Positions 1 to 25,627 of a stretch of 54,853 bases of DNA are shown here, piece by piece. Source of the stretch: a virus (taxonomy: Duplodnaviria > Caudoviricetes). The position numbers and the translations under genes are program-made. The notes beneath the pieces are model-generated. The model had not been told where the DNA came from. It was given only the letters and a program-made list of their open reading frames with translations, and searched no databases. Every line of letters begins with the position of its first letter. Position 1 is the stretch's first letter. The stretch covers positions 1 to 54,853 of IMG/VR virus record IMGVR_UViG_3300027278_000016. One strand, written 5' to 3'.

Positions 1-96
1 CTATTATTGCGGTAACACCGCCTATCATTGCGGTAACACCGCCTATCATTGCGGTAACACCGCCTATCATTGCGGTAACACCGCCTATCATTGCGG
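1..96 (+). repeat. 21-bp tandem repeat CCTATCATTGCGGTAACACCG (~4.5 copies visible, runs off the window edge)
   Basis: Direct reading: contiguous units with no spacers. Each unit contains the inverted repeat GCGGT-AAC-ACCGC. Confidence 0.97.
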
Positions 97-182
97 CAGT
101 AGATTGTTCAACAGCATCTTGCGGTAATGACCCAGGTAGGGCCTGCTGCTTCTACTTAAGAGGAGTTTGCCGTGCTTGCTAA
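1..182 (+). CDS. 3' end (5'-truncated) of a Pro-rich repeat protein with a C-terminal 6-Cys mini-domain: ...IIAVTP(PIIAVTP)3PIIAAVDCSTASCGNDPGRACCFYLRGVCRAC*
   Basis: Not in the ORF track. Frame 3 is open from the window edge to TAA at 180-182. The first repeat unit differs by att vs atc, which is synonymous (Ile) in this frame. An AT-rich gap with a promoter follows. Confidence 0.75.
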   Translation, partial: IIAVTPPIIAVTPPIIAVTPPIIAVTPPIIAAVDCSTASCGNDPGRACCFYLRGVCRAC

Positions 183-199
183 AAATAAATTAAAAGATA

Positions 200-228
200 T
201 TTACTATTTTTGTTGTATATGCTATACT
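200..228 (+). promoter_or_regulatory. sigma70-type promoter (TTTACT-17-TATACT, with TG extension) for the oxygenase operon
   Basis: TTTACT 200-205 and TGCTATACT 220-228; AAGGAG SD before ATG 253. Confidence 0.65.
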
Positions 229-252
229 AAATATTAAAGTCAAGGAGATATA

Positions 253-468
253 ATGCCTAATAGAAAAATTGCTATGATTAATAACAATAACGTTGTTAGC
301 CAAATTATAGTTTTTGATGAAACAGATATTGCCGAGCAGGGAGTAATTGCTGGGATGCTTTCTGAGCCAAAATGTTTTGAAATAAATCCTAACTCAGAAG
401 CAACAATGGGATGGACTTATATTAACGGAATAGCATATCCCCCAGAAGAAATAGTGGAGATTATATAA
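253..468 (+). CDS. Small hypothetical protein, paralogue of 469-660
   Basis: AAGGAG SD; C-terminal P-x-x-F-E-I...GWTY...YPP motif shared with the next ORF. Confidence 0.8.
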   Translation: MPNRKIAMINNNNVVSQIIVFDETDIAEQGVIAGMLSEPKCFEINPNSEATMGWTYINGIAYPPEEIVEII

Positions 469-660
469 ATGGTAAAAAAGTTTATTTTAGTTGTAGGGGA
501 AGATGTTGTTACAGAAATGACTATGCCAGATGTAAATAAATTTAGTGGACTAATTGATACTTTATCAAATAACCCCAGGTTTGTTGAAATACCAATAGAT
601 TCTGAGATAGATAAGGGCTGGACCTGGGATGGAAATAATTTTTATCCCCCACAAAATTAG
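469..660 (+). CDS. Small hypothetical protein (GWTWDG..FYPP motif)
   Basis: Abuts the previous stop; GGAG SD; similar to 253-468. Confidence 0.8.
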   Translation: MVKKFILVVGEDVVTEMTMPDVNKFSGLIDTLSNNPRFVEIPIDSEIDKGWTWDGNNFYPPQN

Positions 661-671
661 ATTGGAAATTG

Positions 672-914
672 ATGTCAGACAGCAAAAAATCTTTATGGCA
701 ACAATATAAAGAAAATCTAGGTGACACCAGGCCTTGGGATTTGATTAATCCAAATTCTGAATGGGCATCTGAAGAAAAAGCAGACAACAGATTTTCTATT
801 TGCAAAGCATGCCCAGAGCTTATTCAAGCAACAAAGCAATGCAAAAAATGTGGGTGCTTTATGGCAGCAAAAACTAAATTAGAGAAAGCCTTGTGCCCTC
901 TTGGGAAATGGTAA
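672..914 (+). CDS. Cys-rich metal-binding protein, DUF6171-like
   Basis: R..ICxxC...QCxxCGCFMxxKTKL...CPLGKW pattern. Confidence 0.7.
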   Translation: MSDSKKSLWQQYKENLGDTRPWDLINPNSEWASEEKADNRFSICKACPELIQATKQCKKCGCFMAAKTKLEKALCPLGKW

Positions 915-915
915 T

Positions 916-1476
916 ATGTTTAAAGCAAATATAATTCAAGATTTTATTTCAAAAGAAAATTGTGAATATTTAATTAATACTGCAATTGCTTCAGATTTAT
1001 GGGAAAGCGGCGGTTCCACATTTTGGGATAACCGTGTTATTAATTATCATAAAATTGGCGAATACGATAAAAAGTCTGCATCCATAATGTTAGACGCAAA
1101 TGTTCGTTGCGGAGAAAGAATTAAAAACTTGTTTAGCGTAGAAGAAATATACTCTGACACATTACAAATAATTAGATGGTTTCCAGGAATGGAACAGCCA
1201 CCACATGCAGACGACATGAGCAACACCGATATGATAGGATTCGAGCACAGGTCCTTTGGGTCTATTATTTATTTAAACGATAACTATACAGGCGGACACA
1301 CTTATTATCCAAATTTTGATTTTGAAATTATTCCTAAGTCTGGCGCTTTAGCAATTCATCCAGGGGATCCAGAACACCTTCATGGAGTAACAAAAATTGA
1401 AAATGGAATGAGATATACAATTGCTTCGTTTTGGACACAAGAAAAAGAGAAAAGTCATGGCTGGCCAGTATATTAA
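916..1476 (+). CDS. 2OG-Fe(II) oxygenase, prolyl-4-hydroxylase alpha-like
   Basis: HAD (HxD), IIYLNDNYTGG, distal HGV and RYT 2OG-binding Arg; ATG 916 follows the previous stop. Confidence 0.9.
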   Translation: MFKANIIQDFISKENCEYLINTAIASDLWESGGSTFWDNRVINYHKIGEYDKKSASIMLDANVRCGERIKNLFSVEEIYSDTLQIIRWFPGMEQPPHADDMSNTDMIGFEHRSFGSIIYLNDNYTGGHTYYPNFDFEIIPKSGALAIHPGDPEHLHGVTKIENGMRYTIASFWTQEKEKSHGWPVY

Positions 1477-2212
1477 TGATAAGGGTAACGAAGTCCCTGA
1501 AAATACAATTGTAGTAATTCCACACGCACTAGACTCGGATGGTTCATACAAAGAAGTTTTGCTTGACTTAAAGGGCAACCCTAAAAGAGAATGGTTTAAT
1601 TCTCATTTTTACTATTGCTTGCCATTAACTATAGGAAATCAGTATGGCTATGTAATTAAATCTCTTAGAGACTTTACTGCTATTTGGGACGGAACTAATA
1701 ACAATGCACAAATTAATTTTATTAATAATGACAACGAAGATTTGCAAGTAATTAAAGATGGATTTGGTCAAGGAATTATAACAATACAAAACAAATTTGG
1801 ATTTAAAACTCCACCAGGAATAAATCTTATGACAATACAGCCACCAAATTGGTTTATACCAGGAACCGCTGCGATGACGGGTGTTATTGAGACGGATCAG
1901 ATTAGGCGTGATTTTACATTTAATTTAAAAATAACAGTTCCCAATATAGAAATATCTGTAAAAAAAGGTGACCCCCTGGGTGCATTTATTCCAATACCAA
2001 GATACTTTGTTGATAGGTTTAGCATAAAGCTTGTGTCAGATATTTTTGATAAAGACTCACACTCCTTAGAATTAAACGAGCTGATGTCTTTAGGCAAAGA
2101 AAGAACTACAATAGATTTGGCAAAACCTCACCAGTCTGGCCGCAGATATTTTAACGGTTTGCATACTAATGAAACTGAATACCCCGATCATCAGAAAAGA
2201 GTACCAAAATGA
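1457..2212 (+). CDS. DUF6065-like protein
   Basis: YYCLPLTIGNQYG, FKTPPGINL...PPN, TGVIETD...FTFN, KKGDP...IPIPR motifs resemble DUF6065. Likely start is ATG 1457. Confidence 0.65.
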   Translation: MAGQYINDKGNEVPENTIVVIPHALDSDGSYKEVLLDLKGNPKREWFNSHFYYCLPLTIGNQYGYVIKSLRDFTAIWDGTNNNAQINFINNDNEDLQVIKDGFGQGIITIQNKFGFKTPPGINLMTIQPPNWFIPGTAAMTGVIETDQIRRDFTFNLKITVPNIEISVKKGDPLGAFIPIPRYFVDRFSIKLVSDIFDKDSHSLELNELMSLGKERTTIDLAKPHQSGRRYFNGLHTNETEYPDHQKRVPK

Positions 2213-2757
2213 AAAATCCAATAGTTATAAACAATTTGTTGTCACAAGAAGAGTTTAAAGAATTGCAAGATTATGTTAAAAATTTAGATAAATCAACATT
2301 AGGACATTCTGCTGAATTTAGTAGATACGAATTTGGGGGATCTGAAATATTAGATTCTTTACACAAAAAGCTAATGCCCCTTGCTATGGATTTTTTTGAA
2401 AGCCAAACCCTAGTTCCATCATTTAATTTTGGCTCTTGGTACTATGGGCAAGCATCCCTAGAAAAGCATAGAGATGTTGCCCCATGTACTTACAGTATAG
2501 ATTTATGCGTGTATCAAAATACGCCGTGGGATTTATATGTTGAAGGGGTTCCTTACACACTGCAAGAAAATGAAGCCCTTTTATATTATGGCGAGGGTCA
2601 GAAGCACTGGAGAGAAGAGTTTCCAGATTCAGGAAATAATGTTGTTTGTAATGTTTTTTTCTTTTATGTTGAGCCAGACCATTGGTCAATTATTGAGCCT
2701 GAAGAAAAACACGATATAATTAGAAGACAGAATGCTATTGAAAGGAATTTATCATGA
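2209..2757 (+). CDS. Phage 2OG-Fe(II) oxygenase-like (DSBH) protein
   Basis: LEKHRD (HxD), C-x-YS, WDLYVEG, distal HWRE; ATGA overlap with the upstream gene. Confidence 0.75.
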   Translation: MKNPIVINNLLSQEEFKELQDYVKNLDKSTLGHSAEFSRYEFGGSEILDSLHKKLMPLAMDFFESQTLVPSFNFGSWYYGQASLEKHRDVAPCTYSIDLCVYQNTPWDLYVEGVPYTLQENEALLYYGEGQKHWREEFPDSGNNVVCNVFFFYVEPDHWSIIEPEEKHDIIRRQNAIERNLS

Positions 2758-3536
2758 AAATTGAAAAACACTGCGATGGAAATGTAATAATAGTTGAAGA
2801 TTTTTTGAGTCAAGAAGAAATTACGCAGCTAGACTCTTTTATGAGAAATTTTGACTATAACAATTTGCAAGAGCACGAATTTAAATATTGGGGAAAACGT
2901 TTAATTAATGATTATCAAATGAAATTAAACCCAGGGTATGAAAATGTTATGGATGGCGTTTTACCTACTTTAAATTCTATAATACAAAGAACAACAAACT
3001 TTTTAAATGAGCAAGACTATCAAGCCGAGTGGATCCCTTCTCCACATAATTTAATTAAAATGTTTAATGGCTCAAGTAACATGGAGTTTGATGGAGACAA
3101 AGAATTAGAAATGTTTATCCACATAGACAATCAAGGACACATGGAAAGCCCAATTATGTGGGGTAGCGTACTTTATCTTAATGATGATTATGAGGGCGGA
3201 GAGATTTATTATCCAGATTATGATTACCTGTATAAGCCCAAGGCTGGCTCAATGGCATTGCATAGAGGCAACACCCGTCACGGAGTCAAAAAAGTAATTT
3301 CTGGTGAACGTTTTTGTGCAGCCTCTTTAGTTACAATAAAAGGAAATTGGAATAATAATCCTTTGCCAACTAGAACTGATAACGCAGACAACCCTTACCA
3401 TTATCCAATAGGGTACTGGGGAAAAAGATACAGGCTTGATCCTATTCAAGGAGAAATTAAAAACCTTAGAAGCGACGGATCTACAGCAGAATATAACCCA
3501 GATCCTGAATTAGGAAGGGCGGATGGAAATGGTTGA
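2754..3536 (+). CDS. 2OG-Fe(II) oxygenase, prolyl-4-hydroxylase alpha-like, with C-terminal extension
   Basis: HID, VLYLNDDYEGGEIYYP, KPKAGS, HGVKKVISGER. Confidence 0.9.
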   Translation: MKIEKHCDGNVIIVEDFLSQEEITQLDSFMRNFDYNNLQEHEFKYWGKRLINDYQMKLNPGYENVMDGVLPTLNSIIQRTTNFLNEQDYQAEWIPSPHNLIKMFNGSSNMEFDGDKELEMFIHIDNQGHMESPIMWGSVLYLNDDYEGGEIYYPDYDYLYKPKAGSMALHRGNTRHGVKKVISGERFCAASLVTIKGNWNNNPLPTRTDNADNPYHYPIGYWGKRYRLDPIQGEIKNLRSDGSTAEYNPDPELGRADGNG

Positions 3537-4098
3537 TCAATTACTTATAGAAGAAGCAATAAGAGATAGAAAGATACATGTATTTAGAAATGCGTTTCCA
3601 GATACCCCTAAATGGGAAACCATGTTAGCAATTATTGCAAAGTATGTATCTAGAGATCTAGAAGAGTTTCCAGACAAGAGTCATTTAAGCACTTCAAATC
3701 TAGGAGAAGCGTATCTTAGCTTTCAATTACGATGCAGATTTTGGTCTAGACTCACTTATCAATTATTTGATCCAAAAGATCCACTTGAGTCGGATGTAAA
3801 AGAGCTAATCCCCATACTAGACTGGGCTAATGATACTTACGGTAGCCGCCTTGCAAATACATTTTCTCTTGTAAGTTTAATGGCTAATAGAGGACAAGTG
3901 GGATTAAAACACAGCGATGATGTTGATCAATTTCAATGGAATTGTAGAGGCACTTCACTGTGGAGGACTGGAGAAGATCTAGAGGTTGAAACTCACATCG
4001 AACCTGGAGATTTTATTTTTATTCCAAAGGGCATAAACCATGAAATTGAAACATTGACCCCTAGGTTTGTAATAAATTTGGTATTGAATAATGAATAA
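3523..4098 (+). CDS. JmjC/cupin-type oxygenase
   Basis: KHSD...FQWNCRGTSLW...EPGDFIFIPKGINHEI. Confidence 0.8.
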   Translation: MEMVDQLLIEEAIRDRKIHVFRNAFPDTPKWETMLAIIAKYVSRDLEEFPDKSHLSTSNLGEAYLSFQLRCRFWSRLTYQLFDPKDPLESDVKELIPILDWANDTYGSRLANTFSLVSLMANRGQVGLKHSDDVDQFQWNCRGTSLWRTGEDLEVETHIEPGDFIFIPKGINHEIETLTPRFVINLVLNNE

Positions 4099-4669
4099 TA
4101 TTATATATATAGATAAAAATCATGTCAGCCAACAGGACATTTTAAATGCTAAGCAAAATGTTGACTTGCTTTACATTGCAAATTTAATTCCCTCAACCAC
4201 GGGTTGGTCAGAATTTATTGATCATTGTGATTACACCGTTAAGCATCCAGAAGTTACTTTACCAAGCCCAGTAAAAGTTATAGGCGCATTACAAATATGG
4301 GATGATCTTTTTATGGCAGGATACAATGTTAGCAGTGGCAATTGCTTTAGCCAACTTGAAGAGGTCTTTGCAAAAACAACAGAGCTTTTTGGCAGAAGAC
4401 CAAACAACGGCTGTACCCTGATAAACTTTGTTGGGCAGCAAAAAACAATACCAGTTCATACAGACATAAGAGATTCATTTTTGTGGCAAGCAATAGGATC
4501 GGTTGAATGGAGAATTTGTGAAACACAAAGCGAAGACTCTGTGTATCAAATTTTAACGGTAAATCCAGGAGATGTTTTGTTTGTCCCCTCTGGACTTATT
4601 CACACAGTCTTTTGCAAAGACCCTAGAGCTGGAATATCTATATTCTATGACAAAGAGACCCACCAGTAA
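4091..4669 (+). CDS. JmjC/cupin-type oxygenase (paralogue of 3523-4098)
   Basis: VHTD...FLWQAIGSVEW...NPGDVLFVPSGLIHTV. Confidence 0.8.
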   Translation: MNNIIYIDKNHVSQQDILNAKQNVDLLYIANLIPSTTGWSEFIDHCDYTVKHPEVTLPSPVKVIGALQIWDDLFMAGYNVSSGNCFSQLEEVFAKTTELFGRRPNNGCTLINFVGQQKTIPVHTDIRDSFLWQAIGSVEWRICETQSEDSVYQILTVNPGDVLFVPSGLIHTVFCKDPRAGISIFYDKETHQ

Positions 4670-4730
4670 GTAAATTAGATTCAGTTAATCTTTAGCAAGG
4701 TATAATATAGAATAGCCGTAAAGGGTTTGG

Positions 4731-4746
4731 GGGTATAATATAATAT
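4731..4746 (+). promoter_or_regulatory. -10 element TATAAT 7 nt upstream of an SD-less ATG (probable leaderless transcript)
   Basis: TATAAT 4734-4739, ATG 4747; another TATAAT lies at ~4701. Confidence 0.55.
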
Positions 4747-7431
4747 ATGGCAACAGCATTCCCTACCTCCAAAGATGACTTTGTAAATCCTCAATCGACG
4801 GATTCTGTACAAACGGTATCTCATGCTGCCCAACACGCAGACGCAAATGATGCTATTGAGGCTCTTGAAACAAAGGTTGGTGTTAATAATTCTACCGACC
4901 CAGCCTCTATTGATTATAAAGTAAAACAACTTGAGCTTAACTTCCTAGACACTGAAGAAGTTCAAGATATTGCCGCAGCTCTTTTAGACCATGCTGATCA
5001 TTCTAACGTAAGCGTTACCTTCAATGATATTTCTAACAAATTAATTTTATCTGTTTCAAATGCCCCGTCAGCCAACTATACTTCTGTTGTTAAGCATGAG
5101 GTAAGAGCAGGAGAAGGCCTAGTAGCTGGAATACCCGTCTACGTAAGTTCCTCTAATGGAACAAACATGATTGTTTCAAAGGCTAGCAATGCTGGAGATG
5201 CAACTTCTAAAACTCTAGGGCTGCTTGCTCAAAATTTAAACGTAAATACAAACGGATTTGTTATTACGGAAGGTCTACTTGCTGGTTTAAATACTGGCAC
5301 TGCGGTGGCGGGAGATCCAGTATGGCTAGGGCCTACAGGAACATTAATATATGGATTAGCAAATAAACCAAAGGCGCCAGCTCAATTAGTATTTATTGGT
5401 ATAGTAACAAAAGCAAATGCAAGCAGCGGTGAAATTTTTGTTAGAATTCAAAATGGCTTTGAACTTGAAGAACTTCATAATGTTAACATAACCGCACCAG
5501 TAACAGGCGAAGTATTAATATATAACGCAACTACAGGCCTATGGACTAACACAAATACAATGGCTTCAAAGTCATATGTAGATACAGCAGTATCAGGTCT
5601 TTCAAATACAGTTGGAACAACATATATTCCCCTCGCTTTACTTGGAAACGCAGACGGTGTTGCAGAACTTGACGAAGCTGGATTTGTACCCGCATCTCAA
5701 TTAAACATCGATGAAAAGATTCAAGACGTAGCAGCAAAGCTAATTACAGACGGAACCCACTATAACATTACCGTCTCATATAATGATACTAATGCAACAT
5801 TAAGCTTAAGCGCAAACTATGACGACGAAGAAGTAATGGACGCAATTGCCACATCTTTAACGGCGGGCAATGGAATAACAAAGACTTATGACGATGTTGC
5901 TAATACAATAACCCTAGCGGTAAACACATCTGTAATTGCTGATCAGGCATATGTAAATCAAAAGATTGCCGACTTAGTTGCTTCCGCTCCTGCTGTACTA
6001 GATACATTAAAAGAGATTGCAGACGCTTTAGGAAATGATGCTAGTTTTGCAACAACAATAACTACCGCCCTATCTTCCAAACTAAATATAACTACTGCCG
6101 CAAGCACCTATCTAGCACTTGCCGACACAGATGAAAGAGTTCAAGATGTTGTTGGCGGTATGGTTTCTGGAAATACAGAATCAACAGGAGTTGCCGTAAC
6201 ATACGATGACCCAACAGGCAAACTAAATTTTGAAATAACAACAGCAAACCTTCCAGGATTTACTGAGGCAGCACAGGATTCCGTAGCAGGCCTATTTACA
6301 CACGCTGGCCATACAAATGTAACAGCTACATATGATGACGTAGAAAATAAAATTAATTTATCTGTAATAGCCCAGCTAACACAAGAGCAAGCTCAAGATT
6401 ATATTGCTCCATTATTTACACACGGTCTAAACCCTAATATAACAGCAACTTATGATGACACCGCTAATAAGCTTATTCTTGAAACAATTATTCCTCCGTC
6501 AAAAGCTATTATGTCTGCTTTTGCTCCAACGTCACCAGCAGATGGAACATTCTGGTTTGATACAGATGAATATAGAAGCGGTAACACATGGGCACTAAAA
6601 GTTTGGCAAGCATCAACATCATCCTGGCAGTACGTATCTTCAGATCTTTCATTATCAACAACAAACACATGGACATCTAAAAACACATACACTAATGGTG
6701 TAATTATTGGATTAGATGCAGCACCAGCATCTCCAGTTCACGGACAAATTTATTACAACAAGCCATTAAATAAGTTAAAGGTTTGGGACGGCCTACTGTG
6801 GCAAGATATTCAAGGAGCAGGAGGCGGTGGAGGATTAACATTAATTCCAACAGATGCATCTGCCCCACCAAGTACATTTTTTGTAGGTTTAATTTCACCC
6901 CCATCAGGAGCAACAGCAGAAGGAGATCTATGGATTGATGTTGATGACATTGATACTCCATTTAATCAATTCTATACAGGTGGAGTCTCACCAGATCCCG
7001 CACAATATGAATTTTGGGTTGACAATGTTGAGCCAATTCAAGAATTAATTTACAGCGCAAATGAACCAGCTACGCCATCATACCCAGGAGAACTTTGGAT
7101 TGATACAGATGAGTATGATGGAGCAATTGTAGAATTTGGAGCAACCGCCCCAAATCCAGATAATGTTCAGCTATGGGTAGACATAAATGAAAATGAATCT
7201 CCAAGTTATTATAAAGATTTAACATTTACCAACTATGCAACCGTTGCAGATTTTCCAGTCTCTGCTCCAAATGGCTATGTTGCTTCAGATGCATCAAGCG
7301 GAATGGCTTATGTAAGAAGCCAAGGACAGTGGTTGGCAATAGTAACTTCGTCAAATATAAATACTATTATTTCTTCAAACTCAACAGTATTTGAAGATTT
7401 AAAAGCTTTAGCCTGGATGGGATTTGAATAA
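4747..7431 (+). CDS. Large mosaic virion fibre/decoration protein
   Basis: Six ~37-aa E-x-x-QD...YDD...KL repeats, the phage fibre motif APAVLDTLKEIADALGNDASFATTIT, and C-terminal acidic P..P..G-x-x-W-x-D repeats. Confidence 0.75.
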   Translation: MATAFPTSKDDFVNPQSTDSVQTVSHAAQHADANDAIEALETKVGVNNSTDPASIDYKVKQLELNFLDTEEVQDIAAALLDHADHSNVSVTFNDISNKLILSVSNAPSANYTSVVKHEVRAGEGLVAGIPVYVSSSNGTNMIVSKASNAGDATSKTLGLLAQNLNVNTNGFVITEGLLAGLNTGTAVAGDPVWLGPTGTLIYGLANKPKAPAQLVFIGIVTKANASSGEIFVRIQNGFELEELHNVNITAPVTGEVLIYNATTGLWTNTNTMASKSYVDTAVSGLSNTVGTTYIPLALLGNADGVAELDEAGFVPASQLNIDEKIQDVAAKLITDGTHYNITVSYNDTNATLSLSANYDDEEVMDAIATSLTAGNGITKTYDDVANTITLAVNTSVIADQAYVNQKIADLVASAPAVLDTLKEIADALGNDASFATTITTALSSKLNITTAASTYLALADTDERVQDVVGGMVSGNTESTGVAVTYDDPTGKLNFEITTANLPGFTEAAQDSVAGLFTHAGHTNVTATYDDVENKINLSVIAQLTQEQAQDYIAPLFTHGLNPNITATYDDTANKLILETIIPPSKAIMSAFAPTSPADGTFWFDTDEYRSGNTWALKVWQASTSSWQYVSSDLSLSTTNTWTSKNTYTNGVIIGLDAAPASPVHGQIYYNKPLNKLKVWDGLLWQDIQGAGGGGGLTLIPTDASAPPSTFFVGLISPPSGATAEGDLWIDVDDIDTPFNQFYTGGVSPDPAQYEFWVDNVEPIQELIYSANEPATPSYPGELWIDTDEYDGAIVEFGATAPNPDNVQLWVDINENESPSYYKDLTFTNYATVADFPVSAPNGYVASDASSGMAYVRSQGQWLAIVTSSNINTIISSNSTVFEDLKALAWMGFE

Positions 7432-7437
7432 GCATTC

Positions 7438-7446
7438 TGGTATACT
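7438..7446 (+). promoter_or_regulatory. Extended -10 promoter TGGTATACT
   Basis: Intergenic; AGGAGG SD and ATG 7468 follow. Confidence 0.55.
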
Positions 7447-7467
7447 TTAGGATAGGAGGGTCATAAT

Positions 7468-8088
7468 ATGTCACTAAAAAGATGGAACGGTACCTCATGG
7501 GTTACCGTCGCTGGTTCAAGACCAGGACCCCAAGGTGCTACAGGACCTACAGGTTCTGCAGCAACTATTTCTGTAGGAACAGTAACAACTGTTTCAGCAG
7601 GAACATCAGCAGCAATTTCAAATGGTGGTTCGTCATCAGCTGCAATATTTAATTTTCAAATTCCAGCAGGACCAACAGGATCTGCAGGATCAGCGGGAGC
7701 ACAAGGTGTGGCGGGACAAAGAGGTTCTTATACTTTTACAGGAATCAATAACCCTACAGGATCAAATCCAGCAAGCAAGCTAGGACTAGACACATATTTA
7801 AACACAACAACTGGAGATTACTTCCAATACAATTCTTCAAACACTACATGGGTACTTCAAGGAAATTTAAAGGGCCCAGTCGGAACAGCAGGAACACAAG
7901 GTATAGTTGGTCCAACAGGAGCAACGGGCCCAGCAGGAGAAACAGCAGTAAATAATGTTATAGCAGAATTAAATAGTTGGAAGGCAGACCAGATACTTAA
8001 TCTTGGTGTATACTATCCAAAGTATGAATTCTTAACAAATATGTCACAAAACAATGCAACACTTTTAGCAACAAGCATGATATTCTAG
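7468..8088 (+). CDS. Short collagen-like fibre protein
   Basis: G-X-Y stretches interrupted by an ATISVGTVTT...FNFQIP domain also present in 18424-20802. Confidence 0.8.
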   Translation: MSLKRWNGTSWVTVAGSRPGPQGATGPTGSAATISVGTVTTVSAGTSAAISNGGSSSAAIFNFQIPAGPTGSAGSAGAQGVAGQRGSYTFTGINNPTGSNPASKLGLDTYLNTTTGDYFQYNSSNTTWVLQGNLKGPVGTAGTQGIVGPTGATGPAGETAVNNVIAELNSWKADQILNLGVYYPKYEFLTNMSQNNATLLATSMIF

Positions 8089-8099: not shown

Positions 8100-11000
8100 A
8101 TGGCCAGAAAAATTTTAACCCCAACAGGAATTGAGTTTGCACCACTAACAGGAACTCTAAAGCTTCCAATACTTATTCGCAGAGAAAAGCTTTTGTTAAT
8201 TACTAACGTGACAGTAAACAAGATTGTTTACAATTTTGCAGACCCATCCCTTGGCCTATACGACCACATCCTAGATACTACTACAGATCAAGCAAGAGGA
8301 TCTACAACACTTGTTTTGCAATACAATACAGCAAACATGCTTTCAACAGATAGATTCCAGATTGTATATGATGATAAGTCTGAAAGCTTTGAGCCAGCAG
8401 ATTACATGATTGATGCGGTAGGAAAGCTTCGTACAGCTAATCCAAAGTCTCTTATTGATACTGACTTTGAATACGGTATTCAGAACTCTAAGTGGGAAAC
8501 ACTTACAATGATTCAAAATTATCCAGGTTTTTATGGAAGATCAACTGGAGGAAACGCTATTGATCTTCAGCTTCTTTCAGGAGATGGAACAGCAACATCA
8601 TCTAGATTTTCAAAGATTTCAGGAGTATGTAACTCTCCACACGGACTTAGCGCAGGAGATGTTATTTCTGTTCAGGAAACAACAACAGACAATGCAGACG
8701 GAACATTTTTAGTTACACCAACAGGATCAACTACATTTGAATACACAGCAAAAGGTATTGTAAGCGGAAGCATCCTTGATGGAACACTAACATCAATTTA
8801 TGGTGGAGGTATTTTTGATAATGCTCACATAATGGGTGGAATTGTTGGAAACCTAGGAGCATTTTCTGCAGTATCAGATCAAGCTACTCCATCAAGAATT
8901 ACTATTGTTTCTCCAAAACCTCACGGTCTTCTTCCAGGAACACCAATTCTTGTTACACAAAAAGAGGGCAGCACTTTTTACGGAAGCTTCTTTATTGATG
9001 GGGTGGATACACCAAATTCAATGACATTTTTAGCAGCAGGACAAATAAACAATCCAATTAATACAACATCCCAAGGTGTTTATGCAAAACCAGAAGGTTA
9101 TGTAAACCACAGACCACACGACGGCGGAGTTATTCTTTCAACAGGAAATAACGTTTGTGGAACACAAACAATGCGTCAGACACGTAGATATTTTAGATAT
9201 CAGTCTGGTAAGTCAATTCAATTCTCAACAGGAACAAAGTTTACACCAACATTCCAGGCAGAATATATTGCTTCAACTGGCCTAGTACCAGGGTCACAAA
9301 ATATTACAGTAACAACAAATGCTTCTCACAACTTACAACCAGGCGCTTATGTAAAAATTGATGGCGTTGAAGTTTCAGGTACATATAATCCATTTAATGG
9401 TATCCACCTTGTTACAGCAATTATTGATGCTACAACATTTAGATATAACGTTAACTTTACAAGCACACTATCAGCAATTGATCAGATCCCAGGCGGCGTA
9501 AATGTATTCGTTACAGCTTACCGATGGAAAGGTGCATCAACAAGAGCAGGTCTTTATTCAGAACAAGATGGATTCTTCTTTGAATATGACGGATCTGGAA
9601 TTTTTGCTTGCCGTCAATGGGCAACAAATACCTTAAGAGGAAATGTTGGAGTTACACAATATAGCTCAACAGTTACAGGAGATGCAACAATATTTAGAAA
9701 GCAGTTGGTTTCAGGAGATAAAATTGTAATACGTGGTCAAACCTACAGAGTGATTCAGATTGCATCAGATTCAGCTATGACAATTGCACCAGCATACCGA
9801 GGAGCTTCTCAACCAAGCGTTAAGGTCCGTAAAGTACAAATTATTAAAGTTCCACAATCAGAATGGAACCTAGATAAGTTTGACGGTACAGGCGCTTCAT
9901 CACACAAGTTTGACCCTTCAAAAATGCAGATGACATATATTGATTATTCTTGGTATGGTGCTGGAACAATTAGATATGGATTTAGAGGACAATCAGGTAA
10001 GATCACCTGGTGCCATGAAATTTCAAATAACAATAATAATTATGCAGCATATCAAAGATCAGGTAACCTCCCTGGAAGATATGAAGCTATTAATGAGCCA
10101 ACAAAGTTTTCAAAGTTGGTTGCTGGTGGAACTTCAGTAAGAGGATCTAATCTTTTGCCAAATGATACTGTTATGTACATTGACAATGTTGATTATTGGC
10201 CAGCAGATGGATATATTAGAATACAAGATGAAAACTATGTTGAAATTGCACGTTATACATCTATAGGTGCGTATAACCAAACAGCAAAGGGCTATGCTAT
10301 GAATCTTATTCGTAGACAGCCATATGTGACATACTATGCTGGACAGGCCTATAGCTTAAACGGAACTTATGTTTCAGCAACATTTAGACCAGATGCAACT
10401 ATTCCTGGAGGATCAGGATCTGCACAAGTTTCAGTCCAAGTTATTTCTCAAGAATGTGCTCCTGTTATGAGCCACTGGGGATCTTCAGTAATTATGGACG
10501 GAGGCTTTGATGATGATGCTTCCTTTATCTTTACAGCTGGTATGCAGCGCTACTTGCAGGTCGGTGGTTCTGGATCTGTTTCAGCAACTATCGTTTCTAG
10601 AGTAAGAGCATCGGGAGTTGCAACAGTTACAACTTCAGCACCTCACTCATTGCTTGCAGGATACAATGCAACAATTTCAGGCATAGATGATATATCTGTA
10701 ATTACTTATAAACAGCTTACATCAAATACAGCAAGCTTAACAACATCTGTTGCTCACAAACATAGAACAGGACAGACTGTCACCATCTCTGGTGTAGATT
10801 CAGTATTTAATGGCACATACACAATTACAGGTACAACATCTACAACAATTCTTTATACTAGAGCATCAACAAATATTCCATTCCAAGCAGCAGTGGGTTC
10901 AGCCCTTACGTCAAGTTTTTACAATGGAACATTCCTAATAAGCAACGTAGGAACAAATACAATTATGTATGCAGTTGCACAGGTTGACGAAACCTCACAA

Positions 11001-11588
11001 TCTGTTAGCCCAAATGGTGCCGCTGTTCAAACATTCGGTGCTACACAGCAAGCACGTCCTCTAATTTCTCTTAGAGTGGCTCCTTCTGTAGATAACGGTA
11101 CTGGACGTAACTTCGGTCTTCGTGAATTATCAAATAACATGCAGCTAAAATTGTTTAATATTAACATTCTTTCACAAGGTCAGTTCTTGATTGAAGGAAT
11201 TTTAAATGCACAGTCACTTAACGGTGTTGCAGTTCCTACAGCTTGGGCAACCTCAAGAGTGGGTTCTGGATCACTAGCACAAATTATTTACCATGATGGT
11301 ACAGGAACTACTGGTTCACCAGTTCTATCTCCTACAAATACCCTTTCTGGAGGTGACCGTGTGTTTGCATTCTACACAGATAATGCTGGTGGTACTAACT
11401 ACTCAGTTACTCGTGTAGATCTTACAAAGGCTCGTGATCTAGGAAACTCAATTCTTAATGGAGATGGAAGCGTGGCTTGTCCAGGTTTCCCAAACGCTCC
11501 AGACATTCTAACAATCTTAGCAACCAACCTCGGTTCATCAGCAGCTAATATTTCAGCTACGCTGTCATGGACGGAAGCACAGGCTTAA
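8100..11588 (+). CDS. Large putative virion structural protein with repeated H-x-L-x-x-G beta modules
   Basis: 1162 aa. Repeats PHGLSAGDVISV / PHGLLPGTPILV / SHNLQPGAYVKI / PHSLLAGYNATI / AHKHRTGQTVTI; also SLIDTDFEYG and RQTRRYFRYQSGK motifs. Confidence 0.7.
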   Translation: MARKILTPTGIEFAPLTGTLKLPILIRREKLLLITNVTVNKIVYNFADPSLGLYDHILDTTTDQARGSTTLVLQYNTANMLSTDRFQIVYDDKSESFEPADYMIDAVGKLRTANPKSLIDTDFEYGIQNSKWETLTMIQNYPGFYGRSTGGNAIDLQLLSGDGTATSSRFSKISGVCNSPHGLSAGDVISVQETTTDNADGTFLVTPTGSTTFEYTAKGIVSGSILDGTLTSIYGGGIFDNAHIMGGIVGNLGAFSAVSDQATPSRITIVSPKPHGLLPGTPILVTQKEGSTFYGSFFIDGVDTPNSMTFLAAGQINNPINTTSQGVYAKPEGYVNHRPHDGGVILSTGNNVCGTQTMRQTRRYFRYQSGKSIQFSTGTKFTPTFQAEYIASTGLVPGSQNITVTTNASHNLQPGAYVKIDGVEVSGTYNPFNGIHLVTAIIDATTFRYNVNFTSTLSAIDQIPGGVNVFVTAYRWKGASTRAGLYSEQDGFFFEYDGSGIFACRQWATNTLRGNVGVTQYSSTVTGDATIFRKQLVSGDKIVIRGQTYRVIQIASDSAMTIAPAYRGASQPSVKVRKVQIIKVPQSEWNLDKFDGTGASSHKFDPSKMQMTYIDYSWYGAGTIRYGFRGQSGKITWCHEISNNNNNYAAYQRSGNLPGRYEAINEPTKFSKLVAGGTSVRGSNLLPNDTVMYIDNVDYWPADGYIRIQDENYVEIARYTSIGAYNQTAKGYAMNLIRRQPYVTYYAGQAYSLNGTYVSATFRPDATIPGGSGSAQVSVQVISQECAPVMSHWGSSVIMDGGFDDDASFIFTAGMQRYLQVGGSGSVSATIVSRVRASGVATVTTSAPHSLLAGYNATISGIDDISVITYKQLTSNTASLTTSVAHKHRTGQTVTISGVDSVFNGTYTITGTTSTTILYTRASTNIPFQAAVGSALTSSFYNGTFLISNVGTNTIMYAVAQVDETSQSVSPNGAAVQTFGATQQARPLISLRVAPSVDNGTGRNFGLRELSNNMQLKLFNINILSQGQFLIEGILNAQSLNGVAVPTAWATSRVGSGSLAQIIYHDGTGTTGSPVLSPTNTLSGGDRVFAFYTDNAGGTNYSVTRVDLTKARDLGNSILNGDGSVACPGFPNAPDILTILATNLGSSAANISATLSWTEAQA

Positions 11589-14311: not shown

Positions 14312-15304
14312 ATGCCACAATCCAACACCACGTCGTCTATATATTTACCAGGACTTACAACAACAATTAACACCGCTATCACTAATGGCTTGAATGCTGG
14401 CATTACAGCACAAGCAATTGCAGCAGGTGGAGTTAGCTCTATGTACTTGCCATTAGAGTCAAGACTATACAGCTCTGGTTCTTGGACACGTCCAGCAAAC
14501 TCAGGACCAGTAATTAAACTTGTTCTTGTTGGAGGAGGCGGTTCAGGTGGGTGCGGTGTTTCATGGAGCCATAATGGCGCAGGTGGCGGAGGAGCAGGAC
14601 AGCTTGTTGAGAGATGGCTAGATATTTCATCAGTTGCAATTGGTGGAACAATTCCAGTTACAATTGGAAATTTTGGTGCTGCTGTAGGTGGAAACTCAAA
14701 CGGTAATAATGGAGGAAACTCTTCATTTGGTTCTAACGGAAACGCTTACTATGTAATTGCATACGGTGGTGGCGGAGGAGGATACCCATACGGCACAGGA
14801 AATAACGGTAACTCAGGTTCAATGGGTCAGGGAGCAGGAAATATTAACGGTGGAGGCTCAGGCGGAGGCGGAGGAGCAGGCGGAGATTGGCAGTACGGAG
14901 CAGCAGGCGGCGGCGGCGGAGCAGGCGGTGCTGGACAAAACGGAATGAATACAACAGTTCAGAATGGAACTGGAAGCCCAGGATATCCTGGAGGAATAGG
15001 TTTTGGTCACGGATCTTCAGGCGGAGGAACAGGATCTAACCACAGCTGGACTTCATGGATTGGTACTGGAGGAGCAGGCGGAAATGGTCTTTATGGAATT
15101 GCAGGCGGAGGCGGTGGCGGAGGCGGAGCAGGCGGAGGAGGATCATGTGGCGGTGGCGCAGGAGGTTCTCAAACAATAGATAACACAGGTGGAACAGGCA
15201 TGGACGGAACTGGTTCAGGCGGCGGAGGAAATAATCATTCAGGTGGAAATGGTCAAAGAGGAGGTACTGGCGTAGCTATTATTACATACTACGTTAAGGC
15301 ATAA
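14312..15304 (+). CDS. Glycine-rich virion protein (fibre tip-like)
   Basis: SGSWTRP...LVGGGGSGG, many Gly runs, C-terminal GVAIITYYVKA. Confidence 0.8.
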   Translation: MPQSNTTSSIYLPGLTTTINTAITNGLNAGITAQAIAAGGVSSMYLPLESRLYSSGSWTRPANSGPVIKLVLVGGGGSGGCGVSWSHNGAGGGGAGQLVERWLDISSVAIGGTIPVTIGNFGAAVGGNSNGNNGGNSSFGSNGNAYYVIAYGGGGGGYPYGTGNNGNSGSMGQGAGNINGGGSGGGGGAGGDWQYGAAGGGGGAGGAGQNGMNTTVQNGTGSPGYPGGIGFGHGSSGGGTGSNHSWTSWIGTGGAGGNGLYGIAGGGGGGGGAGGGGSCGGGAGGSQTIDNTGGTGMDGTGSGGGGNNHSGGNGQRGGTGVAIITYYVKA

Positions 15305-15585: not shown

Positions 15586-15830
15586 TGTCAAGAACATGGG
15601 CACTCTTAGTAGATAATATTATTGGTAATGTTATTGTTGCAGATCAAGAATTTATTGAATCTCATCCAGATTTTTCTCAATTAGAAAAAATTGATATAAC
15701 AGATTATAATCCACAACCAGGAGTTATGTGGAAAATAGAAGATAATAAGTTTATAGCACCAGATCATGTTAAGCCAAAAGCAGAACATGTTTTGGATGAC
15801 GGACTTCTTGAAATCGAGGTAAAAGCATAA
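15585..15830 (+). CDS. Small accessory protein associated with the Gly-rich protein
   Basis: WALLVDNIIGNVIVAD...PQPGVMW...FIAP; TAATG coupling on both sides. Confidence 0.7.
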   Translation: MSRTWALLVDNIIGNVIVADQEFIESHPDFSQLEKIDITDYNPQPGVMWKIEDNKFIAPDHVKPKAEHVLDDGLLEIEVKA

Positions 15831-16765
15831 TGGCAACATACGGAACGATTAATCAAATTTATGTACCAGGATTAGATACTGCAATTCAATCAGCAACAAC
15901 AACACTTTCAACATCTGTTGCTGTTCCTCTTATTGCTGCTAACCTTGCAGGATTTTATAATGCATATGAAGTTTCAATTTTAAGCGGTGGAACTTGGGTA
16001 AGACCAACTAACAGCGCAGGTATAGCAGAAGTAACCCTTGTCGGCGGAGGCGGAGGCGGAGGTTGCTCTAACGGCTCAACTAACCACGGCGGAGGCGGAG
16101 CAGGCCAATTACTAAAAAGACTTCTTGATATATCATCAGTAGCAGTAGGTCAAGGAATTTCAATTGGTATTGCATCAGGTGGAACATGTAACGCACAAGG
16201 TGGAAACTCAACATTTGGAACTTCAGGACAGCCATTCTACATGGTTGCATACGGCGGAGGATCAACACAAGGTAACGGACAATCTGGTTCAAATGGAGCG
16301 GGAGCTCAAAATAGAACAGGAATTGGCTCAGGAGGAGGCGGCCAAGGTAACTGGCAGAACTCATGGGGCGGCGGAGGCGGCGGAGGCGGAGCTGGAGGCG
16401 CTGGAGAGTACCCTAATATATTCTTCTATAACTCTGGAGGATACTCTGGATACTATGGAGGATCAAGAAGCTCATCAGAAGGTTCATCAGGTGGTGGACC
16501 AGGTGCAGCTAACTCAAATGACTCTGGAAGAAGATCTGCTGGAGGACGTGGAGGTCCAGGCCTTTATGGAATTGCAGGCGGCGGAGGCGGATCTGCTAGA
16601 GGTGTTGGCGGACCAGGAGCAAACGGTGGAGGACAAGGCTTCGGAGATTATATCGGAACCCCTGGTGCAGATGGAAGAGCAAATACTGGTTCAGGCGGTG
16701 GTGGCGGCGGAGGAAACACTGCTGGCTCAGGAATCTGCAAAATTACCTATTGGGTAAAAGCTTAA
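15830..16765 (+). CDS. Glycine-rich virion protein (paralogue of 14312-15304)
   Basis: GTWVRP, LVGGGGGGG, GAGQL..R.LDISSVA.G, GLYGIAGGGG and ITYWVKA are shared with the paralogue. Confidence 0.8.
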   Translation: MATYGTINQIYVPGLDTAIQSATTTLSTSVAVPLIAANLAGFYNAYEVSILSGGTWVRPTNSAGIAEVTLVGGGGGGGCSNGSTNHGGGGAGQLLKRLLDISSVAVGQGISIGIASGGTCNAQGGNSTFGTSGQPFYMVAYGGGSTQGNGQSGSNGAGAQNRTGIGSGGGGQGNWQNSWGGGGGGGGAGGAGEYPNIFFYNSGGYSGYYGGSRSSSEGSSGGGPGAANSNDSGRRSAGGRGGPGLYGIAGGGGGSARGVGGPGANGGGQGFGDYIGTPGADGRANTGSGGGGGGGNTAGSGICKITYWVKA

Positions 16766-23714: not shown

Positions 23715-24056
23715 ATGGATATCAACAATACTAAATATAAGGTTCTTGATGAAGAAAGCACACTAGGCATATACGTCTGGGAAATGCCCGACGGCAGATG
23801 GATTGGGGATGATGATGGCAATTTTCTTTCAGTCACGTCAAAAAAGAACAACAGGTCTCTCATGGACGCTTTGGCTAGAGAAGTTCGCTCATTTGGTATT
23901 CACGAGGGCAAACCTAAATTCCTTTCTGCCCGAAGAAAAATTGACGACGAAGAATTTGAATACCAGCAACAAAGATTAAAATGGGGATTAATACCAGACC
24001 CGATGGATATTGGTAATTACAAAGATGAAATGAAAAAGATGGGTGGAGCAAAATGA
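23715..24056 (+). CDS. Hypothetical protein preceding the portal
   Basis: 113-aa ORF, ATGA-coupled to the portal. Confidence 0.8.
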   Translation: MDINNTKYKVLDEESTLGIYVWEMPDGRWIGDDDGNFLSVTSKKNNRSLMDALAREVRSFGIHEGKPKFLSARRKIDDEEFEYQQQRLKWGLIPDPMDIGNYKDEMKKMGGAK

Positions 24057-25627
24057 TTCAAGAGCAAGAAGAAGACGGAAGCACTATTGATATATCTAAC
24101 ACATCCGACTGGTTTTCTTTTAAAAAAGAACAGCCAACAGATGACCCATTTGCCATAAGCGGAGACGACCTAAGAAAAATAAGAGGGCTAGGATCAGCAT
24201 TTAAAAGAAAGATTAACAGAGAATTTTCAAAGTCTTTTTCAGGAATTGAAGGAGTTGGCACACAACAAAATCTTCTTGCACAAGCTATTAGCGGCTATGC
24301 AATGTTTGATCTTATTGAGCCGCCATACAACCAAGAGTACCTATCTAAAATTTATGAAGTTTCAACATATAACTATGCAGCAATTAATGCAAAGGTTGCA
24401 AACATTGTCGGGCTCGGCTACGACTTTATTGAAACAAAAAAGACAAATGATGCATTTGATTCAATAACAGATGAGAAGCAATTAGAAAGAGCACGTAAGA
24501 AACTAAACAAATTGCGTCAAGATCTACACGCATGGCTTGACACAACAAATGTGGAAGACACATTTACTCAAACATTAATTAAGGTATACACAGACTTAGA
24601 AGCAACAGGAAACGGCTACATTGAAATTGGTAGAACTACAGGCGGAAACATTGGGTACATAGGTCACATTCCAGCGAAGACAATGCGTGTACGTAGACTC
24701 AGGGATGGCTTTATTCAATTGCTTTACGGCAAGGCTGTTTACTTTAATAATTTTGGAGACTCTGAAACAGAGAACCCAATTGCAGGACAAGAAGATAGAC
24801 CAAATGAAATTATTCATTTAAAGAAGTATACTCCAATGAACAACTACTATGGCATCCCAGATATTGTGGCAGCCCAAGTAGCTTTGGTGGGTAACGAATT
24901 TTCTGGTAAATATAACCTTGACTACTTTGAGAACAAGGCGGTACCTAGATATATTATTACAGTAAAGGGAGCAAAACTTTCACCAGAATCAGAAAGAAAA
25001 TTGCTTGAATTTTTCCAAGTAGGATTAAAGGGGAAGAACCACAGGTCCTTATATGTCCCTCTGCCATCAGATACTCCAGACTCAAAAGTTGAATTTAAAA
25101 TGGAGCCTATCGAAGCTGGCAATCAAGAAGGCTCATTTGAGAAGTATCGCAAATCAAATAGAGACGAAATTCTTCTTGCCCACCGTGTGCCAATTAATAA
25201 AATAGGAACGCCAGAAGGAGTTAACCTAGCAGTTGCTCGTGACGCAGACAAAACATTTAAAGAGCAGGTTTGCCGACCAGCCCAGATGATTCTGGAAAAG
25301 AAAATTAATAATATATTTGACGAAAAGACAGATGCCCTACTCCTAAAGTTTAATGAGTTAACATTAACAGACGAAGACACCCAGTCTAAAATTGATGAAA
25401 GATATTTAAGAATGCAGGTTATAACACCTAATGAAGTTAGAATTAGAAAGGGCATGATTCCAATTGATGGCGGGGACGTAGTAATTGAACTCAAAGGCCC
25501 AGCCGCATCCGAGCAAGCATCCGTAGCTGGAAATACCAGACAAAGATCTCAAGATCGCCAAGCAACCTCCCCAGATGTTTCTGGAGAAGGCAGAAATGCC
25601 AAAGGCGACGGCAGACAAGTTGACTAA
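24053..25627 (+). CDS. Portal protein
   Basis: GNGYIEI.R, HIPAKTMR, NEIIHLK...YYGIP, YFENKAVP, ILLAHRVP, ITPNEVR...G..PIDGGD. Confidence 0.93.
   Translation: MIQEQEEDGSTIDISNTSDWFSFKKEQPTDDPFAISGDDLRKIRGLGSAFKRKINREFSKSFSGIEGVGTQQNLLAQAISGYAMFDLIEPPYNQEYLSKIYEVSTYNYAAINAKVANIVGLGYDFIETKKTNDAFDSITDEKQLERARKKLNKLRQDLHAWLDTTNVEDTFTQTLIKVYTDLEATGNGYIEIGRTTGGNIGYIGHIPAKTMRVRRLRDGFIQLLYGKAVYFNNFGDSETENPIAGQEDRPNEIIHLKKYTPMNNYYGIPDIVAAQVALVGNEFSGKYNLDYFENKAVPRYIITVKGAKLSPESERKLLEFFQVGLKGKNHRSLYVPLPSDTPDSKVEFKMEPIEAGNQEGSFEKYRKSNRDEILLAHRVPINKIGTPEGVNLAVARDADKTFKEQVCRPAQMILEKKINNIFDEKTDALLLKFNELTLTDEDTQSKIDERYLRMQVITPNEVRIRKGMIPIDGGDVVIELKGPAASEQASVAGNTRQRSQDRQATSPDVSGEGRNAKGDGRQVD

Follow-up and report, generated by a model that had tools for sequence, protein, structure and literature searches.

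The window analysed here, an entire IMG/VR virus record of 54,853 bp (IMGVR_UViG_3300027278_000016, completeness rating 51%), begins within a gene for a proline-rich repeat protein, here called R, and continues with an operon of nine genes (A to I) that includes five oxygenases of the Fe(II)/2-oxoglutarate (2OG) type. An earlier note on this DNA had read the locus as a dedicated protein-tailoring line, and it is this reading that we followed up. Tandem Repeats Finder detected a 21-bp tandem repeat inside R at positions 1 to 96 of the plus strand (4.6 copies, 98% matches), and the contig start falls within this repeat. The repeat unit, CCGCCTATCATTGCGGTAACA, encodes PPIIAVT. The 3' end of R (3 to 182, plus strand; stop codon at 180 to 182) is read in frame 3 as (PPIIAVT)n, seen as IIAVTPP repeats, followed by a C-terminal module (...VDCSTASCGNDPGRACCFYLRGVCRAC) that holds six Cys. 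Frame 2 of the repeat is likewise open, up to position 127. This frame (YHCGNTA) and the minus-strand frames were rejected, since only frame 3 extends into a full open reading frame (ORF) and shows conservation at the peptide level.

The upstream part of R could be recovered from a viral contig (L002) that is identical to the window at 2760 of 2763 bases across the overlap. On this contig, R is a 306-aa ORF (L002:7842-8762) in frame with window frame 3, so that a gene ending in a repeat and a 6-Cys domain, as the earlier note had described it, was confirmed. R starts with a basic N-terminus and a PASTA-like domain; 5 repeat units then lead to a beta-rich domain (about 110 aa, 4 Cys), and 10 more connect this domain to the 6-Cys tail. 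The recovered part thus holds structural domains, and no leader was seen. Inspection of the N-terminus by eye, with no predictor run, revealed no hydrophobic signal-like segment. The R-like relatives reach lengths of 400 to 1000 aa and carry fn3 domains. Almost none of these proteins belongs to a PHROG family, and in several relatives the R-like gene overlaps the preceding fibre gene.

We observed that R-like proteins vary in their N-terminal domain (PASTA or fn3), in their C-terminal module (Cys-rich or Hint-like) and in the repeat unit itself (PPIIAVT, PPPIIAT, PPVT, PPVV, PPPTT, PTPT, polyP, PFFPPFF, YTPPYVPPP or PPDFTPA). The PASTA model (PF03793) is matched above its cut-off in two homologues, with 31.0 bits in L003 and 67.3 bits, in three copies, in L006:7621-8739. 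Judged from these sequences, the constant element across relatives is the Pro-rich tandem-repeat stalk. The repeat of R contains no Gly and is therefore without the X-Pro-Gly triplets of a collagen-type prolyl 4-hydroxylase (P4H) substrate. In one relative (L022) we counted 14 PPPIIAT units, and the six that were printed are all distinct DNA words, each occurring once. Since these units differ in DNA and encode the same peptide, it is the peptide on which selection acts. The units of R are near-identical in DNA (11 of 12 in L002, at L002:8080-8700; window 1 to 96), whereas those of L022 have diverged. This difference suggests that expansion or contraction of the repeat has been recent, and the length of the stalk may vary within populations.

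In many relatives of R, a Hint/intein-like domain of about 160 aa takes the place of the Cys-rich tail. This domain starts at a Cys or Ser directly after the repeat, and its matches to the Hint or Intein_splicing models of Pfam are weak (E 6e-3 to 6e-6, under the cut-offs). It was observed in L009:3804-4886, L003:1-1191, L066:201-1505, L082:3-641, L067:2140-3630 and L083:3157-4476, and twice per contig in L072 (2639-3976 and 11007-11981) and L078 (2665-3933 and 10017-11186). The Hint-like C-terminus may be a self-cleaving module that releases or ligates the stalk. The earlier note had also considered the Cys-rich cap as a target of the enzymes; the replacement of this cap in relatives, with the repeat as the constant part, argues against that idea. 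In four contigs (L072, L078, L064 and L122), the oxygenase array is flanked on either side by a repeat-protein gene; the pair combines an fn3-type with a PASTA-type protein, and the two have differing repeat units.

Downstream of R, nine ORFs of the plus strand extend across 253-4669 in the order A, B, C (DUF6171), D, E (DUF6065), F, G, H and I. Their junctions range from an 8-nt gap to a 20-nt overlap, and sizeable non-coding gaps occur only at 183-252 and 4670-4746. The tightly coupled operon of the earlier note was thus found as described, and its list of genes proved right in every item by Pfam, PHROG, fold, HxD...H motif and paralogy. The AT-rich spacer of 70 nt between R and A (183 to 252, plus strand) contains AAGGAG (242-247), which precedes the ATG at 253, and a promoter-like site at 200-228 (TTTACT, 17 nt, TATACT and a TG motif; 9 of 12 matches). 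A promoter at this site is plausible, as a candidate only. A scan of 5 kb returned 20 such sites against 19.7 expected from shuffles, so there is no excess, and in the promoter and terminator scan the counts equalled those of shuffled sequence. The claim that one promoter drives the operon was therefore not sustained.

The first two genes, A (253 to 468, 71 aa) and B (469 to 660, 63 aa), are paralogues of each other (E 7e-8) and both match phrog_14370; fused tandem A/B forms exist among relatives (L005:963-1397). The third gene, C (672 to 914; 80 aa from ATG 672, with a TTG at 669), matches DUF6171 (PF19668) with 27.6 bits against a cut-off of 27 and phrog_13558 with 2.9e-15, and its product contains six conserved Cys (CxxC...CxxCxC...C). 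The probable starts of C (672), D (916) and E (1457) were chosen by homologues. DUF6171 is commonly the first array gene behind the repeat gene. It was found fused to a PF11397 (GT60) transferase (L113:4234-5418; 3 of 5 longer homologues) and, as judged by eye, to an F-like oxygenase (L003:2340-3167). Because it is fused to differing enzymes, we infer from sequence that DUF6171, and with it C, could serve as a docking or recruitment module.

The pairing of repeat gene and oxygenase array was examined in two surveys. The enzyme-anchored survey covered 91 loci, made up of 11 viral loci reached via E and the best 80 of at least 582 stretches with a relative of D; 78 of the 91, with more than 300 bp ahead of the array, were assessable. 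We counted a repeat gene when an ORF on the same strand, with 11 or more Pro in a stretch of 30 aa, ended no more than 1.5 kb 5' of the array, a conservative criterion, below which the window's own R fragment scores. By this criterion, a Pro-rich repeat gene lies 5' of the array at 48/78 assessable loci, and at 55/78 when seven loci are added by eye. The rest of the locus sequence, about 400 kb, contained only six such Pro-rich ORFs, of which 5 sit within 2.3 kb 5' of the array or overlap its start. The other survey was anchored on the Mtd_N-type fibre gene, and neither partner was selected for. It took 80 of at least 594 matching stretches, and the 73 instances with at least 6 kb downstream formed 61 groups at 90% identity. 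Where the repeat gene came next, 20 groups had oxygenases or DUF6065 and 7 had not; where there was no repeat gene, the numbers were 11 and 23 (odds ratio 6.0, Fisher p 0.0019). The corresponding counts without dereplication were 25, 10, 13 and 25 (p 0.0022). The earlier note had proposed as a check that oxygenase arrays should follow a low-complexity repeat gene in related phages, and this association was indeed observed, in many aquatic phages that are not in culture.

The module sits on several phage backbones. The portal gene of the window (24053-25627) was matched in only 4/10 module-carrying records, at 78, 53, 52 and 21% identity, and was unmatched in two genomes, rated 100% complete, that carry the module (216 kb and 104 kb). 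This mismatch of the portal, together with the variation of all of the R-like protein except the Pro-rich repeat, argues against plain inheritance of the pairing.

We compared enzyme sets with repeat classes by grouping distinct repeat genes according to their non-Pro repeat residues; the enzyme labels are best BLAST matches to window proteins and are crude for distant loci. Ile-type repeats had F in 6/6 arrays and G in the 4 that are not cut by a contig end. PPVT repeats were accompanied by the array order C-D-H-D, polyP repeats by C-D, C-D-E or D-E, and aromatic repeats (PFFPPFF and similar) by 5 to 10 D/G-like oxygenases plus E. The co-variation of enzyme repertoire and repeat class that the earlier note had suggested looking for is thus present. 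A further enzyme in related arrays belongs to PF11397, the family of the Skp1 hydroxyproline N-acetylglucosamine (GlcNAc) transferase, acting on protein hydroxyproline (Hyp) or Thr. A PF11397 GlcNAc transferase was found in the same locus in 6/7 Thr-class cases compared to 5/86 others (p 4e-6). Among the six Thr-class cases, three are close relatives and three share 24 to 29% identity. Pfam E-values of PF11397 in related arrays range from 1e-35 to 4e-52, and related phage arrays with both a P4H-type enzyme and PF11397 are L004, L016, L017, L113, L144, L022 and L006. The window itself gave no PF11397-like sequence in tblastn at E up to 1.

The HxD...H motif is present in all five oxygenases (D, F, G, H and I). 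D (916 to 1476; 186 aa from ATG 916, with a TTG at 901) is a P4H-type Fe(II)/2OG oxygenase that matches PF13640 2OG-FeII_Oxy_3 with 29.2 bits against 27 and PF03171 with 23.4 against 23. Against Tet_JBP it reached 13.4 bits, with a cut-off of 34.9. Residues H97-A-D99, H156 and R166 are conserved in the D/G-family alignment, and a YLN..GG..YP motif is present. The nearest solved relatives of D are the P4H of Bacillus anthracis (8e-5), followed by P3H1, C-P4H alpha-2 and the P4Hs of PBCV-1 and Chlamydomonas.

E (1457 to 2212; 251 aa from ATG 1457, a length as in homologues) matches DUF6065 (PF19541) with 123.7 bits against 26.6 (E 1e-35). It has 1268 homologues among metagenome proteins at E<=1e-5, and tblastn of E against 50,697 cultured phage records gave no match. 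The AF2 model of E (pLDDT 80) predicts a dUTPase-like beta barrel with C-terminal helices. Foldseek matched this model to dUTPases with E 3e-4 and a target-length-normalised TM of 0.55 to 0.66, and in VIA (Z 9.0, rmsd 2.8 over 112 aligned residues) dUTPases or dCTP deaminases filled all of the first 23 rows, followed by rows with Z <3. At the sequence level, a profile of E searched against solved structures found no dUTPase at E up to 10. E145 and D147 are invariant in a G-V-I-E-T-D stretch of E, which may resemble dUTPase motif III.

DUF6065 was observed fused to 2OG-FeII_Oxy_3 in both domain orders (L205, L231, P0121), to a cyclophilin-type peptidyl-prolyl isomerase (E 2e-27; L217:5932-8727, on a cyanobacterial genome contig) and to TPR (L220, L225, L226). 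A fusion with a VIT1-family domain occurs in P0122, for which we offer no explanation. A D-like ORF lies directly 5' of E in 53/66 and 30/31 E-holding phage loci and in 28/58 bacterial loci. The predicted complex of D and E, computed from our own alignments, scored 0.00, which is no evidence on binding either way. The clearest bacterial counterpart of the phage arrangement was found on a Hyphomicrobiaceae contig (L205), where a Pro-run protein of >1818 aa (2-5458), built of SdrD-B-like repeated domains joined by 20 to 33 Pro, ends about 470 nt 5' of the DUF6065/P4H fusion (5932-7725). Elsewhere in the bacterial set, small polyP-polyT proteins were seen in L198 and L199, and TadE-like proteins with Pro-rich tails lie close to DUF6065 in L215, L223 and L230.

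F (2209 to 2757) is a compact protein of 182 aa with a 2OG-oxygenase fold, in which H87-x-D89, H133 and R135 are invariant across 9 homologues. It has no Pfam match, and a profile of F against solved structures gave nothing meaningful by sequence. Comparison of the F profile with the D/G profile in hhalign gave a probability of 69% (E 4e-5). The AF2 model of F (pLDDT 90.5) was matched by Foldseek to 2OG oxygenases with E of about 1e-7 to 1e-6 and TM of about 0.6, the top matches being a PKHD-type hydroxylase, ALKBH, HygX, PHD2, the P4H of Pseudomonas putida and PBCV-1 vCPH. G (2754 to 3536, 260 aa) is a 2OG oxygenase related to D, with which it aligns; its motif residues are H123-x-D125, H176 and R186, and its C-terminal tail is rich in Pro and Tyr. 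It matches phrog_61 '2OG-Fe(II) oxygenase' (2.9e-11) and a generic 2OG model of PADLOC (1.7e-10), and its matches to PKHD hydroxylase and P3H1 among solved structures are weak. The PHROG labels 'DNA endonuclease' and 'ferrochelatase' carried by relatives of D, F and G were rejected as mislabels, since Pfam, fold and motifs identify 2OG oxygenases. H (3523 to 4098, 191 aa; H130-x-D132, H173) is cupin/JmjC-like, scores 20.8 bits with JmjC_2, under the cut-off of 22, and is a paralogue of I (BLASTP 2e-10). I (4091 to 4669, 192 aa; H123-x-D125, H171) is a JmjC_2-type oxygenase that matches PF08007 JmjC_2 with 34.4 bits against the same cut-off of 22, and gave weak matches to NO66 and KDM8 among solved structures.

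R is the last of an upstream run of fibre-like genes, which includes a collagen-like protein and a 390-aa protein with an Mtd_N tail-fibre domain. The operon is enclosed by fibre genes on both sides. The gene that follows it (4747 to 7431, plus strand) encodes 894 aa and matches tail-fibre PHROGs and phrog_5838 (1e-211), which bears out the position just before a virion fibre block that the earlier note had assigned to the operon.

The observed gene content, folds, motifs, gene order, co-variation and fusions tip the balance slightly toward a reading in which the cassette, as an attachment to the fibre block, hydroxylates the proline-rich stalk of R. We infer that R, the presumed substrate, would be a modular virion protein with a binding-type N-terminal domain, a stalk of (PPIIAVT)5 and (PPIIAVT)10 and a small C-terminal module, and that the operon would modify this stalk inside the infected cell with O2, Fe(II) and 2-oxoglutarate. 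D and E would form the core and hydroxylate prolines of the PP dipeptides, and F, G, H and I would add hydroxyls to other prolines or to the side chains of Ile, Val or Thr; which residues F to I prefer is guessed from co-variation. C would act as the small Cys-rich docking module. In related phages, the Skp1-type GlcNAc transferase would next glycosylate Thr or Hyp. The product would be a stiff, hydrophilic and protease-resistant polyproline-II rod, like plant extensins or mucins, that could hold the terminal module away from the particle. The prolyl-hydroxylase relatives of D, the fusions of DUF6065 and the Skp1-type transferases in related arrays hint at peptidyl-proline chemistry rather than generic auxiliary metabolism.

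A wider version of this reading can be put forward only tentatively, as somewhat more doubtful. According to it, many aquatic tailed phages that are not in culture would build a hydroxylated and, in certain lineages, O-GlcNAc-glycosylated, extensin- or mucin-like appendage by means of a portable cassette. D and a recruited DUF6065 of dUTPase fold would form an undescribed two-part prolyl hydroxylase, the extra oxygenases would match the repeat unit (Ile, Val, Phe, Tyr), and DUF6171 would dock.

Several observations weigh against hydroxylation of the stalk of R. No repeat gene was in view at 23/78 arrays of the enzyme-anchored survey, some of which have little upstream sequence, nor at 11/31 fibre-anchored arrays. 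The association statistics ignore shared ancestry, and since many loci are relatives, the co-variation could be inherited. The PASTA match of R itself (E 2.4e-4, 21.5 bits) stays under the cut-off of 23.2. The dUTPase/dCTP-deaminase-like fold of E, taken alone, points to nucleotides, and the fold neighbours of F mix AlkB-family nucleic-acid oxygenases with prolyl hydroxylases. For F, G, H and I, no assignment to a residue type can be made. The six bacterial D-E loci that we read are surrounded by unrelated housekeeping genes, with no neighbouring substrate gene. The target of D and E in bacteria may be a protein encoded elsewhere or not a protein at all, and their position amid unrelated genes indicates that D and E form a self-contained two-gene unit outside phages too; the pair occurs unaccompanied in many bacterial genomes. 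Finally, in the one cultured cyanomyovirus locus that was read, the D-like gene had no Pro-rich ORF nearby.

It is unlikely, yet deserves the most weight among the alternatives, that the oxygenases tailor proteins other than R, either further virion proteins of the fibre block (collagen-like or Mtd-type) or host proteins; R would then simply close the fibre module, with the array inserted at a favoured point behind it. The fibre genes on both sides of the operon, collagen-like ones included, fit such a view, as do the B. anthracis P4H as closest solved relative of D and the bacterial D-E pairs. Arrays without a repeat gene exist, and in L029 and L035 the D-E pair lies directly 5' of fibre genes. 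The neighbourhood counts speak for the stalk instead: collagen-like ORFs are adjacent to the array at 5/78 loci (anywhere at 13/78), with 0 to 29% Pro in their Gly-X-Y runs, compared to Pro-rich repeat genes at 48/78. The enzyme set and the GT60 genes follow the class of the R-like repeat, and the module recurs on differing backbones. Collagen-like fibres were accordingly rejected on synteny as the leading idea for the main substrate, and we keep them within this alternative.

That the targets of the cassette are nucleic acids, nucleotides or small metabolites, with R as an incidental neighbour, we consider rather improbable; the genes would then serve auxiliary metabolism, DNA modification or repair, in line with the usual labels of cyanophage 2OG oxygenases. 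In addition to the dUTPase-like fold of E, the fold neighbours of F include ALKBH6, ALKBH8, AlkB and NMAD-1, PHROG labels of D/G relatives read 'DNA endonuclease' and 'auxiliary metabolic gene', and the cyanomyovirus D-like genes, with one locus read, lack a Pro-rich neighbour. However, D passes the P4H-type model and stays below the cut-off of Tet_JBP, and E shows no relation to dUTPases by sequence in the profile search described above. E is moreover fused to cyclophilin and TPR, both protein-handling, the transferase family in related arrays comprises protein Hyp/Thr GlcNAc transferases, and the linkage to repeat genes is significant.

That R is the precursor of a product like a ribosomally synthesized and post-translationally modified peptide (RiPP), with its repeat or Cys tail modified, excised and released as a bioactive peptide, is very improbable: as in RiPP clusters, a repetitive gene adjoins several modifying enzymes, the tail is small and Cys-rich, DUF6171 with its fusions to various enzymes recalls a recognition element and Hint-like self-cleaving C-termini of relatives could release a product, but R is a large multi-domain protein (306 aa, with PASTA-like and beta-rich domains; 400 to 1000 aa, with fn3, in relatives), no leader was seen, Pfam, NCBIfam and PADLOC revealed among the operon proteins no family of proteases, exporters, cyclases or recognition elements, and R ends a virion fibre block, overlapping the preceding fibre gene in several relatives. 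The dedicated protein-tailoring line of the earlier note is thus supported in part, by synteny and co-variation, whereas its RiPP branch is rejected and its Cys cap is not supported.

Hydroxylation of the R stalk can be compared with several known systems. A 1999 report is said to describe the prolyl 4-hydroxylase of a chlorella virus and the peptides that serve as its substrates. Like PBCV-1 with its vCPH, the window combines a virus-encoded P4H-type oxygenase with virus-encoded Pro-rich repeat ORFs as likely substrates, and vCPH (5c5t) is among the sequence matches of D and the fold matches of F. PBCV-1, a giant virus of eukaryotes, carries one such enzyme, and we know of no fixed gene neighbourhood of its P4H; in contrast, the present system belongs to a tailed phage, keeps fibre gene, repeat gene and array in a fixed order, comprises five oxygenases, DUF6065 and DUF6171, and has other kinds of repeats. 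In plants, hydroxylation and subsequent O-glycosylation turn the Pro-rich repeats of extensins and arabinogalactan proteins (Ser-Pro4, Pro-Thr and Tyr units) into extended rods. Among the phage repeats, PPPTT, PTPT and YTPPYVPPP resemble those of these hydroxyproline-rich glycoproteins. Unlike plants, phages have no secretory pathway and would work in the bacterial cytoplasm, and their transferase family is PF11397.

In Dictyostelium and Toxoplasma, the prolyl hydroxylase PhyA and then the GlcNAc transferase Gnt1 (PF11397) modify one proline of one protein, Skp1. Related phage arrays likewise pair a P4H-type enzyme with PF11397, and Dictyostelium PHD (6t8m) is among the fold matches of F. The window differs from the Skp1 system in having no PF11397 gene, and some phage transferases differ from it in being fused to DUF6171. 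The P4H of B. anthracis (3itq, 5hv0, 5iax) is a bacterial enzyme similar in size to D and closest to it by sequence (E 8e-5), but identity is low, with 91 residues of D aligned. To our knowledge, the natural substrate of this enzyme is unsettled, and we know of no DUF6065 partner for it. In marine cyanomyoviruses, 2OG-Fe(II) oxygenase genes are commonly listed as auxiliary metabolic genes. Relatives of D at 25 to 30% identity were found in 95 records of cultured phages, whose names are without exception Synechococcus, Prochlorococcus, Cyanophage or Marine, and in ACG-2014b the D-like gene lies just 5' of tail-fibre genes. The cyanomyovirus arrays differ from the window in that E has no match in cultured phages and in that no Pro-rich ORF was near the D-like gene at the one locus.

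Our literature search returned no paper about phage proteins with Pro-rich repeats beside oxygenase arrays, nor about DUF6065 or DUF6171. The new elements are that the system occurs in phages, that fibre gene, repeat gene and array follow one another in a fixed order, that arrays of several oxygenases track the repeat unit, that D is paired with DUF6065, and that DUF6171 occurs in fusions. That a virus might hydroxylate its own Pro-rich repeats is an idea that stems from the chlorella virus P4H, which a 2022 survey (PMC9301287) cites, and the model of glycosylation after hydroxylation comes from plants and from Skp1. The survey states that viral use of P4H 'remains cryptic'. Genes for 2OG oxygenases and P4Hs rank with the most common 'auxiliary' genes of aquatic viromes that lack an explanation. 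If hydroxylation of the R stalk is true, a large share of these genes would be tailoring enzymes of structural proteins, with the substrate next door, and not metabolic. Post-translational hydroxylation and glycosylation of a virion appendage would be added to tailed-phage biology, DUF6065 would be a prolyl hydroxylase partner and DUF6171 a docking domain. The matched sets of repeats and oxygenases would also be a source of enzymes for the hydroxylation of peptides at Pro, Ile, Val, Phe or Tyr.

Further downstream of the operon, the 894-aa fibre gene is followed by genes for a collagen-like protein (7468-8088, 206 aa) and a virion structural protein (8100-11588, 1162 aa) with 37% identity to cyanomyovirus virion structural proteins. 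Gly-rich/collagen-like (Gly-X-Y) proteins in the structural block are encoded at 7468-8088, 14312-15304, 15830-16765 and 18424-20802, and antisense frames of these genes yield spurious Pro-rich ORFs. A further collagen-like gene is present on L002 (5239-6654). Streptomyces phages some 127 kb in size, among them BillNye and Circinus, have portals with 57% identity to that of the window. With a portal like that of Streptomyces phages and a 1162-aa protein like that of cyanomyoviruses, the particle genes look mosaic. The similarity of the portal and the presence of the PASTA domain suggest that the host is Gram-positive and may be a low-GC aquatic actinobacterium.

A megablast of positions 1-4700 against cultured phages gave no match. 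PADLOC returned no system-specific model of defence or counter-defence; D and G matched only its generic 2OG-domain models, and its model of a PASTA-bearing kinase matches R weakly. Two freshwater metatranscriptome runs of one study contained six contigs of 51 to 238 nt, with no differing letters, covering 25-75, 529-766, 2386-2579, 2785-2935, 4160-4310 and 4509-4660, and a third run contained none. These contigs do not count as evidence of expression, since DNA is possible in RNA libraries and contigs reveal neither the level nor the structure of transcripts, and the uncovered parts are uninformative. On one contig without a repeat gene (L012:11954-17717), a D-E-F array is followed by genes that, judged by eye only, resemble those of sugar-nucleotide and carbamoyltransferase type. 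On L002, a 644-aa ribonucleotide-reductase-like gene (L002:409-2343), assigned by eye and BLAST labels, lies 5' of the fibre block.

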